A stretch of 58,628 nucleotides of DNA, the filler included, from Squatina squatina (taxonomy: Eukaryota): NCBI GenBank assembly GCA_031763465.1. It is 3 parts of 3 records of this genome, joined end to end, with 100 filler letters (N's around TTAATTAATTAA, not from the genome) between each part and the next. Parts side by side here need not be neighbours in the genome. Positions count along the whole stretch, not along the records: positions 21,057 to 45,566 come from JARFOE010000001.1; 2 more parts are not named here. One strand, 5' to 3'. Within the stretch, counting starts at the first letter, position 1. Every line of letters starts with the position of its first letter. The position numbers and the translations under genes were made by a program. The notes under the pieces are model-generated. The model saw only the letters and a list, made by a program, of their open reading frames with translations. It had not been told where the DNA came from and did not search any database. Below are positions 4,076 through 45,622 of the stretch, piece by piece.

Positions 4076-4254
4076 CTCTCCTCACTCCCTCAGTTAATGC
4101 TGCCTCTGTCCTCACTCCTCCAGTTAATGCTGCCACTCTCCTCACTCCCACTGTTAATGCTGCCTCTGTCCTCACTCCTCCAGTTAATGCTGCCAATCTC
4201 CTCACTCCCCCAGTTAATGCTGCCACTCTCCTCACTCCCCCAGTTAATGCTGCC
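4076..4254. repeat. 30-bp minisatellite, about 6 copies
   Basis: C(A/T)GTTAATGCTGCC recurs at 4091, 4121, 4151, 4181, 4211 and 4241. Confidence 0.95.
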
Positions 4255-5239
4255 CCCACCCTCCTCTCTCCTTGCTCCCTCAGTTTGTGCTGATACTCTC
4301 CCCGTTTCCCCCTTTCCCCCGCCCATTATGTTGGCATTCTCCTCTCTCAGCACCACTGTCCATTCTGGCTCCTTTTAGCGATCAGAACAGGACTGGGAGT
4401 ACAGAATGTTTTAACACCTGCTTATTTTGGCGGAGATGCTCCCCAACTGACTCATTACCTGTGCACGACCACGTCTTGCAGGCGGTGTTGATATTGGCAC
4501 CGATTTTGGCACCGTTAGCGCATTTGCCAGTTTGTCACTGCACACTGGCAACACCAATGTGCAGCATCCTGTGATAATGCCAGCGCCAGTTCAGCAAACA
4601 AATCACCTCCCACGGCGCTCAGTCTGGGGGCCTTTAGACAGGACTAATTAGATTGCATTGTTCTGTGGTCAGCACTAAATAGGCTGACAGCGGATCAATT
4701 AGCTGCATGCAGAGATCATCAGTGTAGCGCATCGTTACATTATTAAGTAGACGGAAAGCAACAAGATCCTCGAAGCAAAGGATTTTCCAATTTTATCTTT
4801 CATCATTATCTTTTTAAATACAGGTGCCAGCCATTGGTGGCCCTTCTGCCCCTTTTACCTGTGACCCTTGGCAGATTTGCTGCTCTCCGCACATTTTATT
4901 TATGGAGACCATTTTGTGCATCGATAATTGCTTCCTGCAGAGGTCCCGAATTGCTTTGGTTAATGTCTTGCAGTTTTTAAATGGTTGAGCACTCGTATAG
5001 TTGGTTCAAGTGCCAGTGTGACAAAAATTGTAAAAAAAAAAGCAGCCTATTTGGTCTGTGTTGTAAATAGCTCATTAAAAGAATGTTCCAGAGAGAAACG
5101 TTAGTTNNNNNNNNNNNNNNNNNNNNNNNNNNNNNNNNNNNNNNNNNNNNNNNNNNNNNNNNNNNNNNNNNNNNNNNNNNNNNNNNNNNNNNNNNNNNNN
5201 NNNNNNGCTCACTAAAGCTGGAGGTATTTGGAACGCTTT

Positions 5240-9406: not shown

Positions 9407-9630
9407 NNNNNNNNNNNNNNNNNNNNNNNNNNNNNNNNNNNNNNNNNNNNNNNNNNNNNNNNNNNNNNNNNNNNNNNNNNNNNNNNNNNNNNNNNNNNNN
9501 NNNNNNTCGTTAGATGAGGAGTAAATTTCAGGGGGAAGGCGCAGAGAACTGAGGGAGGGGATTTTTGGGAGGGCGAGCGGAAGGTGGGTTTTCACGTGGA
9601 CTTTGGGTTGAATTTTCGTTCTGTTTTTAG

Positions 9631-9770
9631 GACCGGGGCTATTCACATAGGGGACAGGATATTAGCCATTAATACCGTGAGCCTTAAGGGCAAACCGCTG
9701 AGCGAAGCCATCCACCTGCTCCAGATGGCCGGGGAGACGGTGACCCTGAAAATCAAGAAGCAAGCAGACC
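9631..9770 (+). CDS. GRIP2: GRIP2 exon (C-terminal half of PDZ6)
   Basis: Bounded by tttttAG and GTgagt. Encodes [45 protein letters not shown], the GRIP PDZ6 sequence. Confidence 0.92.
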
Positions 9771-9824
9771 GTGAGTATTATTTGTGGGAGTGTTGTGGGG
9801 AACGATACTGGGGATTAGAGTGTT

Positions 9825-16253: not shown

Positions 16254-17634
16254 TCCCTGTTAAAACAATTACTCTTTCACCCCAGCCGTTCCCCATGTAC
16301 GGCCCTGATCTTTGCTCCTTTTAGTCCAAGGGACACAGATTTGAACGGATATGACGGACAACTGGTTTAGCCAATCACCGCCAGATCTGGCTGGACCACA
16401 AAACATTATGGGTTCCTGCTCTCATCTGCCAAAATTGTGCACCATTCCAGAATCATTTTGGAATGTAAAGGTAAACCCCAGTTTCCATTCTCCACTACTA
16501 ACCGTCTTTTTAAACATCACCCCGACCCCACCGACAATAAATGTGAGGAGCTCATGAACTTCTTTGTCTTTAAGATTGAGACCATCCATTCGGCCACCTC
16601 CTCTTCCCTTCCTTCCCCATGCCCACTGAGCCAAACTTCCTCTAAGCATCCCTCCTGCCCTAGCCCTGACCTCACATCCTTCTCCAGTTTCTCTCCGATC
16701 TCCGCTCATGATCTTTATGAGCTCGACCTGTCCATGAGACTCGCTTCCTGCTCCCTTGACCCCATTCCCATCAATCTGCTGACCATCCAACTTCCTTTTC
16801 TGGCTCCCAGGTTAATTGACATTGTTAACAGTTCTCTCCCCTCAGGTACTGTTCCCCTCTCTCTCAAATCTGCGGTCATCACCCCTCTCCTCAAAAAACT
16901 AACCCTTGACCCCTCCGTCCTTGCAAACTACAGCCCCATCTGCAACTTCCCTTTCCTATCCAAATTCCTTAATGTGTTGTTGCCTCCCATATCCATGCCC
17001 ATATTTGCCGCAATTCCATGCCTGAATCCCCAATCTGGTTTCCGATCCTGCCACAGTACCGAAACAGCTCTCATCAAAGTCACGAATGACGTCCTTTGAC
17101 AAAGGCAAACCTTCCCTCCTTGTCCTTCTTGACTTGTCTGCAGCCTTTGACACGTTTGACCACTCTATCCTTCAACACCTCTCCACCGTCATCCAGCTGG
17201 GTGGGACTGCACTCATCTGGTTTCATTCTTATCTATCTAATCGTAGCCAGAGAATCACCTGCAACAGCTTCTCTTCCTGCCCCGTACCTCTGGTGTCCCT
17301 CAAGGATCTATCTTTGGCCCCCTCCTATTTCTCATCTACATCTTGCACCTTGGCGACATCATCCGAAAACTCAGCATCAGTTTCCACATGTACGCTGATG
17401 AGATCCAGTTCTACCTCACTACCACTTCTCTCGACCCCTCCTCAGTCTCTAAATTGTCAGACTGCTTGTCTGACATCCAGCATGAGTAGAAATTTTCTCC
17501 AATTAATTATTGGGAAGACCAAAGCCATTATTTTCAGCCCCCGCCACAAAATCCGTTCCTTAGCCACTGACTCCATCCCTCTCCCCAACTTCTGTCTGAG
17601 GCTGAACCACACTGTTAGCAACCTTCATGTCCTA
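16254..17634 (+). mobile_element. L2 LINE ORF2 reverse transcriptase, frameshifted
   Basis: Motifs SCSLDPIP, IVNSSLPSGTVP..LKSAVITPLLKK..LDP..LANY.PI.N, QSGFR..HSTETAL, LVLLDLSAAFDT and YADE. Confidence 0.92.
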
Positions 17635-21000: not shown

Positions 21001-21012
21001 TTAATTAATTAA
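21001..21012. other. Artificial scaffold-joining linker (six-frame stop)
   Basis: TTAATTAATTAA centred in N44...N44; an identical construct is at 45611. Confidence 0.95.
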
Positions 21013-22806: not shown

Positions 22807-23260
22807 ACGCCGAGAGCCTGCGCCATTGGCAGGAGCTGGCGGTGTCGCCCTTCGCCCTCCCGAGCCCCTACCCTACCCTGGAGGAAGAGCTACTGCTCAG
22901 CGCCAACCTCAGCAACTCCACCGACTGCGGCGAGGAGATCCTGCTGTACGGCGAGGTGGAGAAAGTGATCATCGGAATCGTGCTCTCCATTATCACCCTG
23001 TGGACCATGGCCGGCAACTCCATGGTCATCATCTCGGTGTGCGTTGTCAAGAAGCTCCGGCAGCCCTCCAACTATCTGGTGGTGTCCCTGGCCGCCGCCG
23101 ACCTCTCGGTGGCCGTGGCCGTCATGCCCTTCGTGATCATCACCGATCTGGTGGGGGGAGAGTGGCTTTTTGGCAAAGTTTTCTGCAATGTCTTCATCGC
23201 CATGGATGTAATGTGCTGCACGGCTTCCATCATGACCTTGTGTGTGATCAGCGTGGATAG
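22807..23260 (+). CDS. 5-HT7-type serotonin receptor, first coding exon (N-terminus to TM3; start codon lies in the gap)
   Basis: Encodes CGEEILLYGEVEKVIIG...VKKLRQPSNYLVVSLAAADLSVAVAVMPF...FCNVFIAMDVMCCTASIMTLCVISVDR|gtgagt. The intron falls inside the DRY motif, as in HTR7. Confidence 0.92.
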
Positions 23261-23479
23261 GTGAGTTTCTCTCTCTTATTGTGTCTCCTATCAATAACAC
23301 ACACACACACACACATATATTATATATATGACAACATCACTCTGAGTCTGGACTTAAAGCAAACGCCCTCCCCTCCACTNNNNNNNNNNNNNNNNNNNNN
23401 NNNNNNNNNNNNNNNNNNNNNNNNNNNNNNNNNNNNNNNNNNNNNNNNNNNNNNNNNNNNNNNNNNNNNNNNNNNNNNN

Positions 23480-23590: not shown

Positions 23591-23781
23591 GAGTGGTGTA
23601 GCTAAATGAAGTTTGAGACTCAGAGCCTGTTATTTTAATCACACTGCATTGTTTAATTGAAGAATAATGTGCCTGAAGCTTAGATTCAGAATGTGAAATA
23701 AGCAGCATCTTCTGTTTTACATTATCATGTATAAAGAGCAATTAGAGTTGATAAATGTATTTCTCTGATTGTGTGTTTCAG

Positions 23782-24094
23782 ATACTTGGGAATAACACGT
23801 CCTCTGACATACCCGGTGAGACAAAACGGAAGATCAATGGCCAAAATGGTGATCACCGTTTGGCTTCTTTCAGCATCCATAACCCTCCCGCCATTGTTTG
23901 GTTGGGCCAAAAATGTTACGGTGGACAGGATGTGTCTCATCAGTCAAGACTTTGGCTACACTGTCTACTCTACAGGGGTGGCCTTTTACATCCCCATGAC
24001 TGTCATGCTGATTATGTATTACAGGATCTTGACTTGTTTAGACAGCTTCTATCAAATGCACACATTGCAGTCAGCATCACTTCAGACACACTGA
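23782..24094 (+). CDS. 5-HT7-type receptor second exon (TM4-TM5); homology ends at about 24028, stop at 24092-24094
   Basis: Starts after tttcAG. Encodes YLGITRPLTYPVRQNGRSMAKMV..VWLLSASITLPPLFGWAKNV...CLISQDFGYTVYSTGVAFYIPMTVMLIMYYRI, then 21 unrelated residues. Confidence 0.85.
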
Positions 24095-24613
24095 TGTTGC
24101 TACAGTGTTGGCTGCCTTACAAATTTCAATCTTGATAAATGTAAAACTAGTTTACTCAGATTTTACAGGCTTGGATGAGAATAACTATAGTAAAGCATGG
24201 GAGTCAAATGTGATGCACCAATTAGCCTTGAGAATATTGCTAATTATTTACAACCACAGTAAATATTTAACTTTCTATTTGAATAAAAACTTCAGCAAAT
24301 CCTTACACCACAGCTATTTACTCATTCCATCAGTGATTATCCCAAAGCATAAACTACTCAATAGTTATGTTACTGGATTAATAATGATTTGGAGATTTGA
24401 GTTCAATTTCCACCGAGGCAGCTGAGGAATTTAAATTTATTTAATTAAATAAGTCTGGAATTAAAAAGCTAGGGGCTGAAATTCATTTNNNNNNNNNNNN
24501 NNNNNNNNNNNNNNNNNNNNNNNNNNNNNNNNNNNNNNNNNNNNNNNNNNNNNNNNNNNNNNNNNNNNNNNNNNNNNNNNNNNNNNNNGGCAGGACTTGA
24601 GGTCGGGAACAAA

Positions 24614-26219
24614 ATGATGGAGGATAAGATATCCTCATATGTGTGTAGCAAGGCAGATGTTTCTGAGCCATGGGTACAAGAAATGATACACTCTGTCAAT
24701 CCGTGGGAAAAAGCGATAGAGTGGACAGTTAGTAGTAACCATCGGGAATCGAGAGAAAAAGCAATTTGGCTAATATGTTTGCAAAAACAAAAGCAGATTC
24801 TCATGAAGAGAGTAAAACAATTAGAAGAAGAAAAAGAGGAGTTAGAAAGTAAAGCAAGTGCTGGGGAAGCAGTACGAGATTGGTTGATGAAGGATTTAAC
24901 TGATGAAAGACAGGAAAGGAAAATGAAGGAAGCAACGGCACGAAATACGATGTATTTACAATGCCAGGTTACTGAGTGTAGGAGACAGTATCAGACTCGT
25001 TACGAGGAAAGCATAAGGAACCTAGAGCGAGCCGAAGAGGCAGAGGAACGATTGAAAGATATGAAGATGGCATGTAGAGTAGCCCGAAAACAGGGGTACG
25101 AAGGGGCTGATCAGGTGCCATGTAAGGAAAGAATTCGTAAACTGACCTTCACACTATCCGGGGCTAGAGGTATGGTTTGTCTCATGGAGCCGGGAGAAGT
25201 TGGGGAAGACTGGTGTGAGAGGGGAATGAACCTGATGATGGGCCCTAGTATAGTGAATGTCAGTAGGCTCCCAAGGCTCCGGGACCACCGAGGCCAATGT
25301 GGCCCCTACGACAGCAAAAGTTCAGTCCACTGCTAACGGATGGTGGCCCGGCGCCATTGCAGAGTGACTATGTGCTCCCATGTATGCCCTTCCAGTTACA
25401 GGAAATGCTGGCTAACGTGGTGAAATTGAAATATGGAGGAGACGCCTCTGCCTATTTTGCCAATGTAGAACAGATAGGTGGTATCAATAATTGCAACGAT
25501 GACCAGATGAAGAAACGATTACTGTTCTCCTTAGATGGGAAGCTGTATCAGAGTTTGTCGGCCACCATTAAATTGGGAGGCGGTACTAGAAACGGTTTGA
25601 CGGAAGAAATTTTAGCAGCACCAGGATATAATCAAGGTAGTCCTTTCTTACAGGTTGAGCAGACTAGGCAGCAAGCAGGCGAGTCACCAGACACATTTGC
25701 GGATAGACGGTGGCCAGTATATCTGAGAGCAACTGGAGGAAATCTAGCAAGCGCAGACTTAAGAGGGGCTCCCAGAAATCATTGTTTAAGTACCATAGTG
25801 TTCAACACCTTGCCGTGGATCAGGGCAAGGGTCGAGTCATGGTTTGACAATAATAATTCTGAGGCGGGCATGCTGAGAAAGCTAACATTATCCTTCAAAT
25901 CAGACAAAGGGGAATAATATAAGCAAAAGGGGAAGGTGCATGAAGTAAGAAGGAATGGAGGCACGAGCAGGGTAATGCGAGTAGATCCCAAGCGTATTTC
26001 AATTGTGGGAAAATGAGACACTGGAGTAAGGAGTGTAGGTTCCCGAAAGAGGGGAAACCAGGACATGAGGGATCAAAACCACGGGTGGTAGAGATAAGAC
26101 AAGAGAAGGTAGAAGACCCTCTTAGTGAAACTTAGTGGCCGCATGACAGCAGAGATCAGGGGAAACTGGACGCTGCCGTGAGTGACGGAGGACCCGGCGT
26201 GTCCGCACCCCCACGGTGA
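24614..26219 (+). mobile_element. Endogenous retrovirus-like gag, frameshifted (coiled coil, capsid, zinc knuckle)
   Basis: ORF 24614-25336 is a charged coiled coil. ORF 25297-25917 has the MHR-like QQAGESPDTFADR. The knuckle YFNCGKMRHWSKEC lies at 25995-26036. Confidence 0.75.
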
Positions 26220-27215
26220 CGGGGCCGTGCCTAGCCCAAATACCTGTGTCCCCTCACCTATGATGAGTGGGGCAGACCGTGTGTAGATATTAAAGTAGAG
26301 ACCACTTGGGAAAGTATCTAGTGGACACTGAAGCCTCTAGTACAGTGGTCCACTCACCAAATCTGACCACTTCCCCATGGTCGAGTGGAGTCCCATTTAA
26401 ATTGACAGGTTTTACAGGTAATGAACAGGCTGGGGCGGTATCGCTACCCTTGACTGTAAAGTTAGGACCCGTTGTCACCAAGTGGGAATGTGTTCTGATG
26501 AAGTGGGAACAACCCGGTTCAGGGGTTCTTGGAGCCGATTATATGTTAGCTCACCGTGTGGTAGTAAATATGAAAAACAACTGTCTATGGGGGGGGCAGT
26601 TGATTCAGATAAACTAGAGGAAATTTTAGTTATTCCCAAAGATGAAAAAGTTAAAGGCAGTGCCTGTACGATGAAGCTAAAGGGAAGTTGTGACATAGAA
26701 CAGTTGATTAATAGTGTCCGGGCAAAGTACCAAGTGAGTGTACGGGGTAACATTGCCGTGTTTGCTACCCACAGGCATGATTGTGGAAGGGTGACGGGGG
26801 TAGAGGTGAAGGTAGATGGGGGTCCTAATGTCGCGGCCTCAGAAACAGTACAATTTTCCCCAAGAAGCATAAAGGGATTTGGAAACTGCGATAAACTCCT
26901 TGGTGGATCAAGGTGAATTGAGACCAATAGCCCTTTTGTGAATTCACCCCTTTGGCCAGTTAAGAAACCCGATCAGTCATGGAGAGCCATGATAAACTAC
27001 CAGGCTCTGAATAAAAATATTCTAGCCTGCACGTCCACTGTAGCGGCAGCAGCAGATCTGATAGGAAGTATCTCCGTGTCGGCAACGACATTCACCGTAC
27101 TCGATATATCAAATGGGTTTTGGTCGATCCCCATGAGGCAGGAAGACCAGTATAAGTTCGCTTTTACATTCAAAGGACAACAATATACGTGGACGTGTCT
27201 TCCACAAGGGTTTAG
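26220..27215 (+). mobile_element. Endogenous retrovirus-like pro-pol (aspartic protease plus N-terminal half of RT), decayed
   Basis: Motifs GRPCVDIKVE, YLVDTEAS (DTGA-like), VLGAD, VFATHRHDCG, PQKQYNFPQEA, NSPLWPVKKPDQSWR, LDISNGFWSIP and YKFAFTFKGQQYTWTCLPQGF. Confidence 0.9.
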
Positions 27216-27342
27216 AAACATAGAAACATAGAAAAATAGGTGCAGGAGTAGGCCATTCGGCCCTCCGAGCCTGCACCGCCATTCAATATGATCATGGCTG
27301 ATCAGTACCCCGTACCTGCTTTCTCACCGTACCCCCTGATCC
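27213..27342 (-). mobile_element. CR1-type 3' tail inserted antisense into the RT gene
   Basis: (TAGAAACA)n-AATAGGTGCAGGAGTAGGCCATTCGGCCC. The same tail occurs at about 16065, 31680 and 51738. Confidence 0.8.
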
Positions 27343-40479: not shown

Positions 40480-41182
40480 ACTTGCCCAACAGGATGACCA
40501 TTCTGCCAGAGGAAGAAGACTTTGCAGGGTTGGGGAGAGGAGGCCTTACCCTCGTAGGATATATCGCCAGCAGTTCTCATACATGCATTTCAATGAGCAG
40601 CAATGTGTACAGCGGCTTCGTTTTACAAGGGAATTCATCACTGAGTTCTACCATGTCCTGGCCCCAGTTAAGACGAAGGACAACTCTCTCAGTGGCTGTC
40701 CAAGGTGACCAGCGCCTTAAATTTTTATGCAAATGGCTCTTTCCAGGCAGCTACTGGAGACATAGCTAACATTTCTCACTTTCCCATTCATTGGCTATAC
40801 TGGCAGTGCCCACAATGTCTTCATCTTGTTCCAGAGCAGGGTGCCGTGCCAGCACTCTTCCAGCCACCAAATTAGCCTCGGGGCTGGCTGCTCGGGGACA
40901 AGGGCTATCCGCTACAGACCTGGCTAATGACTGCCCTCTGAAATCCCAACACTGCATCCCAGCAGGCATACAATGACAGCCATGCCACCAGCAGGAGCAT
41001 CATAGAGCAGACAATAGGACTGCTGAGGCAGTGGTTCCGTTGTGTGGACCCTCGGGAGGAGTCCTTCATTACTCGCCTGAATGGGTCTCCTTATTTGTGG
41101 TCGTCTGCTGTATGCTACACACCCTGGCCATCATGGGGGATCAGCCCTTGCCAGCAGAAGCTGCCGCAGGAGCTGAGGAGCA
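40480..41182 (+). mobile_element. PIF/Harbinger transposase, internally deleted
   Basis: RRPYPRRIYRQQFSY..FNEQQCVQRLRFT, then the DDE motifs GWLLGDKGYPLQTWLMT, YNDSHATSRSIIEQTIGLL and VVCCMLHTLAI. Confidence 0.88.
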
Positions 41183-45610: not shown

Positions 45611-45622
45611 TTAATTAATTAA
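45611..45622. other. Artificial scaffold-joining linker
   Basis: TTAATTAATTAA inside an N run. Confidence 0.95.

Follow-up and report, generated by a model that had tools for sequence, protein, structure and literature searches.

The window analysed here is a stretch of 58,628 nucleotides, filler included, from Squatina squatina (GCA_031763465.1). It comprises 49 pieces separated by N-run spacers, mostly of 100 N, and a single piece of about 2.75 kb (24589-27342) contains the whole of an endogenous retrovirus (ERV) fragment. This fragment covers gag, protease and the 5' part of the reverse transcriptase (RT) at 24614-27213, and the piece ends in a host repeat:

24614..25333, plus strand: 5' portion of gag, frame 2; short helices at the N terminus precede a long coiled-coil helix (about 24743-25090)
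25267..25914, plus strand: capsid-like part of gag, frame 1; major-homology-region (MHR)-like motif at 25660-25722
25995..26036, plus strand: single nucleocapsid zinc knuckle, frame 3; first ligand degenerate
26133..26318, plus strand: gag-pro junction, frame 3 throughout; stops at 26133, 26217 and 26232, followed by a pre-protease segment
26306..26593, plus strand: retropepsin, frame 2; 57% identity to the relative P0062 over 96 aa
26599..26826, plus strand: protease-RT linker, frame 1; H(K/R)xDCG motif
26828..27213, plus strand: 5' part of RT, read in frame 2 up to about 26935, with a stop at 26870, and in frame 1 from 26938
27215..27342, strand not assigned: very high-copy host repeat interrupting RT; short tandem tail and a 71-nt repeat with three occurrences in the window

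The predicted order gag-pro-RT is borne out by matches to RVT_1 (E=2e-12, 26917-27228) and to a gag-type aspartyl protease (E=0.0014, 26294-26614), and, for 25267-25914, by ESM Atlas matches with retrotransposon-Gag features (top scores 0.93-0.94). The fragment is decayed, with six frame changes and several stops across 24614-27213; the first three frame changes are positioned from motif content alone, and the later frames, from the protease onward, are set by comparison with the close relative P0062. The coding sense of gag frame 2 is probably lost near 25270-25330, at the switch of frame. The retropepsin has its catalytic triplet near 26324, with a non-canonical residue in third place, and RT is cut off upstream of the catalytic YXDD. 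The piece spans 25 nt upstream of the first gag ATG to the terminal repeat and is devoid of LTRs, primer-binding site and env. The Env of snakehead retrovirus (SnRV) as query found no match in the window, a Pfam scan of the other frames of at least 75 aa in the window (132 of 150 covered) found no additional retroviral part, and a tRNA search of the window found none. This copy is predicted to yield no working protein; because all of its gene parts are broken, co-option is not indicated.

The repeat at 27215-27342 is likely, as we take it, to be the reversed 3' end of a shark CR1-type LINE or SINE. A literature search with its sequence found no paper, and the passages on the HE1 SINE that were available are without sequence. 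Read depth in sequencing run X1 is 0.5-1.3 million on the repeat versus mostly below 50 on the element. Two X1 contigs track RT to 27213 and then carry on into RT-like coding sequence; thus, the repeat interrupts this copy and is not the natural end of the element. An assembly misjoin at the repeat may instead explain the junction. X1, which may come from another species, holds related copies in 29 of the 30 bins along the element, differing from it by about 8.5% in the eight longest pieces (146/1710 nt, manual sum). Run X2 has 27 reads, all on the repeat, run X3 has no reads on the queried sequence, and the runs listed as carrying the element include no RNA run. Depth in X1 also climbs to about 3,600 at 27132-27203, the site of conserved RT motifs, versus mostly 10-60 elsewhere on RT, hinting at commoner, more distant related ERV families in the X1 genome.

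For the gag frame from 24614, AlphaFold2 (single sequence) models an unbroken helix of 116 residues (residues 44-159, pLDDT mostly 77-90), in line with the original prediction of a coiled coil of more than 100 aa. The helix consists to 53% of E/K/R/Q/D, has zero Pro, and reaches a crude heptad score equalled by 4 of 200 shuffles. A search for Gag homologues retained none of 2003 candidates, an Atlas search with the coiled-coil part gave generic bacterial matches only (0.90), and Foldseek of the coiled-coil model against viral structures gave 291 matches, none at E<=0.001. The AlphaFold2 model of the capsid part is unusable (pLDDT 31); the MHR-like motif within this part weakly matches SnRV Gag and the coelacanth protein P0006 (E=0.005 in a small set). 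Sequence similarity between the element Gag and SnRV is weak overall (E 0.007-0.35 against 2.75 kb).

Two further predictions on Gag stand in part. A single CCHC knuckle is present, but it keeps three of its four ligands and its Pfam zf-CCHC match (E=0.011) is under the cut-off. No Gly-2 follows the ATG at 24614, but the gag frame stays open up to the piece edge at 24589, so that the absence of an N-terminal Gly is valid solely if 24614 is the true start. The knuckle and the pre-protease segment are both in frame 3 with three stops between them, which would be the same-frame gag-pro layout found in SnRV.

The RT piece as query recovered 12 proteins among 110 candidates. Nearest by RT are P0001 (Logan, 79% identity) and P0002 (JGI, 73%), followed by frog and coelacanth Pol proteins named 'NYNRIN-like' (50-58%). 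P0062, a 1392-aa Pol, is a member of the P0002 cluster, and the Pol proteins of both P0001 and P0062 contain RT, an RNase H-like tether, RNase H and integrase. In both, Pol is an open, intact-looking frame (1145 aa in P0001, 1392 aa in P0062) on a contig of a public assembly (5.0 and 8.5 kb, respectively), suggesting younger copies of the same family in some host. The frog and coelacanth proteins P0004-P0008, P0013, P0015 and P0016 bear the automatic names 'NYNRIN-like' or 'Gypsy integrase-like 1'; judged by domain content, they appear to be whole retroviral Pol proteins of this group rather than host genes. An alignment scan of viral contigs found one locus, L003 (10,688 nt), which is taken to be SnRV: its length agrees, and by eye its RT does not differ from the SnRV entry in the lokiretrovirus paper. 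Viral contigs yielded nothing with P0001 as query and no hit with a lokiretrovirus (Loki) pattern, and metagenome contigs yielded two weak, uninformative loci.

Reference rows for foamy, gamma, epsilon, alpha and beta retroviruses were chosen and labelled by motif. Loki-type rows, unnamed or automatically named, were selected via the motifs of PMC7947760 from the 150 best matches of a search of representatives; their hosts (coelacanth, medaka, eel) fit Loki. Over 92 alignment columns, the element RT is identical to P0001 at 79% (73/92), to P0062 at 78% (72/92) and to P0068 at 61%. SnRV is the closest named virus in this computed comparison, at 53% (49/92), and frog and coelacanth rows are at 43-58%. 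Identity is 42% to WDSV-type, 36-41% to foamy, 35-38% to gamma and 23-32% to Gypsy-type rows, and 34-43 of 91 positions (37-47%) are shared with Loki-type rows. The prediction that the element is neither gamma- nor epsilon-like is upheld. The RT motifs quoted in that prediction were found where it had placed them, but NGFW loses its value as a foamy mark, being present also in SnRV and, in the part of the Loki data available, in most Loki RT rows. SnRV and the element share the motifs LDISNGFWS and LPQGF in RT, and the H(K/R)xDCG linker motif is common to the element, SnRV and the frog and coelacanth relatives.

The element row fills just 92 columns of the RT trees and is anchored by P0001 and P0062 with support of 100/99 or better. 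A first tree of 49 rows, for which 10 of 58 proteins had been set aside because their RT was short or odd, separates the element and 21 retroviral-type rows from Gypsy-type rows at 100/100; later trees use hand-picked sets of 29-43 reference rows. Among 30 retroviral rows, SnRV groups with 13 rows including the element (97/94). This tie to SnRV has support of 78/70 (RT) and 83/78 (RT plus connection) once Gypsy rows are added; under a mixture model, Gypsy rows are scattered without resolution among the SnRV-like rows. With eight Loki-type rows and Gypsy rows (LG+G4), Retroviridae receive 100/99 with Loki (100/100) as sister, and the element falls in a 13-row clade with SnRV (87/94); P0082, one of the 14 rows pre-labelled SnRV-like, is placed outside this clade. 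The LG+C20 mixture model on 34 rows (10 rows left out) again gives Retroviridae 100/99 and puts the element in an 11-row group (87/95), which SnRV joins in 32% of bootstrap trees and which sits in a basal polytomy of Retroviridae. The element is on the Retroviridae side of the split from Loki in both the LG+G4 and the LG+C20 tree. A clade of SnRV and the element is rejected in no RT test. On this phylogenetic evidence the element RT lies inside Retroviridae and outside the lokiretroviruses, grouped with ERVs that include those of coelacanth and frogs; the predicted retroviral rather than Ty3/Gypsy character is upheld, and the element is not nested in a Gypsy clade.

RNase H and integrase lie past the point at which the element RT is cut, and their signal comes from the relatives P0062 and P0001, at 78-79% RT identity to the element. 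In the RNase H tree, P0062 and P0001 are among 16 rows that include Loki and foamy viruses (85/94), while SnRV is joined to gamma/epsilon rows (97/97), the latter flagged as a long-branch join. The P0062 integrase has bit scores of 187-229 against four Loki-type rows and of 85 against another, compared with 132 against SnRV; integrase identity of the relatives is 39-43% to Loki-type rows versus 33% to SnRV. A single clade of the RT-defined set including SnRV is rejected by approximately unbiased (AU) tests for both RNase H (p=0.037) and integrase (p=0.024), in quick trees. Pairing P0001/P0062 with SnRV is rejected for RNase H (p=0.015) and not rejected for integrase (p=0.059). These trees are short and unrooted, and the available parts of the Loki (PMC7947760) and Odin papers describe such RNase H and integrase trees as unreliable and swaps as frequent. 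In the RT tree of the Loki paper, as far as the available part goes, SnRV is a lone representative. Two accounts are offered: SnRV may have swapped its RNase H and integrase, or this group may have diverged early as a branch of its own, which is the unlikely option. What remains of the 'basal lineage' originally proposed is the deep position of the group, which is not settled among the RT, RNase H and integrase trees.

SnRV is an exogenous virus with a complex genome, and its Gag can barely be aligned with that of the element. Like the element, SnRV Gag (L003) contains a coiled coil (about residues 150-274) and a single CCHC. It has no Gly-2, and the SnRV pol continues in the same frame after the gag stop. 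The available text of the Ovex1 paper likewise describes SnRV Gag as unmyristoylated, with a coiled coil, one zinc finger and stop suppression. The RNase H and integrase of SnRV do not group with those of the relatives of the element.

The closest published lineage is that of an ERV of the elephant shark, like Squatina a cartilaginous fish. According to the available text of Han 2015 (PMC4422223), CmiERV lineage I groups with SnRV. By eye, the accessible sequence of CmiERV_Scaffold 2, a member of this lineage, has a long charged coiled coil, an MHR-like motif and one CCHC, as well as an in-frame stop ahead of the protease and the same linker motif as the element. CmiERV lineage I is complete, with LTRs and env according to the material seen, while the piece studied here has neither, and the CmiERV RNase H looks, by eye and in the portion seen, nearer to the coelacanth rows than to P0062. 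The comparison with CmiERV is by eye, and the trees contain no CmiERV, ERV4 or Odin row. The element and CmiERV lineage I likely share a lineage, as far as such comparisons can tell. Because RT identity to CmiERV_Scaffold 2 is just about 60% (55/91, counted by hand from the PMC4422223 DNA; the same hand count gave 48/91 for SnRV versus 49/92 computed), the element represents another family. Thus, the match to a described shark ERV envisaged earlier holds at the level of lineage, and not at that of family.

The Gag combination that had been regarded as odd is therefore not odd, being described for SnRV and seen by eye in CmiERV lineage I. Because known SnRV-like members share these Gag features, the element most likely represents a new family and not a new kind of virus. 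Among the options that had been named, an SnRV-like affinity is the most likely, a Loki affinity fails (AU p=0.003, PQG), and 'undescribed lineage' is too strong, since an SnRV-like ERV lineage of cartilaginous fish was published in 2015 (PMC4422223). No paper naming the family of the element was found in the literature searched; the Xu 2018 supplements, Repbase and Dfam may list it. The SnRV-like clade (Hayward 2015, as reported in part by citing papers) includes ERVs of fish, coelacanth, amphibians and reptiles, and clade Huo (Xu 2018, PMC6001957, available in part) is described as infecting every major lineage of vertebrates; the named relatives found here have hosts that match this range in so far as these sources describe it. 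Clade Huo, by the definition in the text available, includes class III ERVs, although these fell apart from the element in the LG+G4 and LG+C20 trees. Membership of ERV4 (Chong 2014) was considered and rejected: that group is defined, in the passages available, by a Gag without a zinc finger, and the element keeps a knuckle remnant.

We conclude with good confidence that the element is a dead, truncated provirus fragment of the SnRV-like group (clade Huo), in the lineage of CmiERV lineage I but in a separate family. A quite improbable alternative is that it belongs to a deep Retroviridae branch of its own, with coelacanth, frog and chimaera kin, in which the likeness to SnRV reflects old shared features and RNase H and integrase are Loki-like. 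The mixture-model RT tree, in which the 11-row group stands in the basal polytomy without SnRV, would fit this, as would the grouping of the P0062/P0001 RNase H with Loki and foamy rows and the integrase scores with four Loki-type rows, which exceed that with SnRV. However, the RNase H and integrase trees are those deemed unreliable in the accessible parts of the Loki and Odin papers, their signal comes from relatives and not from the element, and the integrase pairing with SnRV is not rejected. Swaps in SnRV alone would account for the pattern, and the LG+G4 trees retain SnRV in the group. A broader form of the same idea, which we consider unlikely, is that the Squatina family, CmiERV lineage I and the coelacanth and frog 'NYNRIN-like' ERVs form an early branch of Retroviridae mislabelled as SnRV-like, in which a true retroviral RT is combined with RNase H and integrase of the types that Loki has retained.

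Three other classifications are far less plausible. The element is very improbably the first lokiretrovirus of a cartilaginous fish. Lokiretroviruses (PMC7947760) share with the element or its relatives, in the data available, a dual RNase H, a coiled-coil Gag region (N-terminal in the Gag of the Loki-related Bik-1) and NGFW; the same source reports them in none of six chondrichthyan genomes, a gap that such an element could fill. The relatives are automatically named NYNRIN-like, and the Loki integrase is described in the part seen as near CGIN1. The 'NYNRIN-like' label was rejected as a sign of Loki, being an automatic name that the RT tree contradicts, and in the available text of the NYNRIN placenta paper no passage on sharks or coelacanth was found. 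Lokiretroviruses differ from the element in RT motifs and tree position: the published Loki RTs that could be inspected have PFG in 24 of 24 cases versus PQG here, placing the element, P0001 and P0062 with the eight Loki-type RTs is rejected, and in the LG+G4 and LG+C20 trees alike two branches with support of 100/99 or better lie between the element and Loki. Equally slight is the chance that the element is a foamy-like ERV (clade Tu). The best PDB matches of the element RT are to foamy Pol (E=5e-19), and the AU test on RT alone does not reject a placement of the trio with foamy rows (p=0.097). However, these PDB matches include no SnRV-like RT, RT identity to foamy rows is well below that to SnRV, and RT plus connection rejects the placement (p=0.020). 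The element moreover has a knuckle and an MHR-like motif, and spumaviruses are without both according to the available part of the Ovex1 paper, so that the original exclusion of foamy viruses is sustained. A Ty3/Gypsy retrotransposon is hardly credible: grouping the trio with seven Gypsy-type rows is not rejected in the tree without Loki rows (p=0.069) and the Atlas matches of the capsid part show a likeness to retrotransposon Gag, but RT identity is lowest to Gypsy-type rows, the 49-row tree splits the retroviral rows from them at full support, two strong branches intervene once Loki rows are added, and the relatives carry a dual RNase H.

As a member of the SnRV-like group, the element would derive from a retrovirus that entered the germ line and multiplied to several copies. 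By analogy with SnRV and general retrovirology, its Gag likely assembled without myristoylation, with the long coiled coil as an oligomerisation rod; the single knuckle likely packed RNA, and, as in the published account of SnRV, translation likely continued through the gag stop to give Pol. Later, the copy studied here would have decayed neutrally, and a LINE or SINE insertion would have struck RT.

The locus itself is an ordinary dead ERV piece, and the Pol frames of P0001 and P0062 make more suitable material. With this locus, a group of which few members have been sampled grows from a chimaera to, most likely, a shark. The group has a position close to the base of Retroviridae. Neither the root nor the past of RNase H and integrase is settled in that region, and SnRV is often its sole representative in published trees; adding sequences of this group would make the question of root and domain history testable. 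If the early-branch reading were true, the group would offer the closest known picture of an ancestral retroviral Pol, and the 'replaced' integrase of Loki would be the ancestral one.

Neighbouring pieces carry intron-split exons resembling a 5-HT7 receptor at 22809-23261 and 23735-24091 (match at about 23780-24045), which are of vertebrate type. Because the order across gaps is unproven, these exons show a vertebrate host and not the insertion site. Within its own piece, the second exon ceases to match the profile at position 182 of 260, and it may be truncated or differently spliced. The window also contains a second RT fragment (17247-17486), a DDE_Tnp_4 transposase fragment (40942-41181), a PDZ exon (9518-9823) and a 30-nt tandem repeat (4076-4285). 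At 21001-21012 and again at 45611-45622, two runs of 44 N enclose a palindrome of 12 nt that has stops in every frame and looks like an artificial scaffolding linker.
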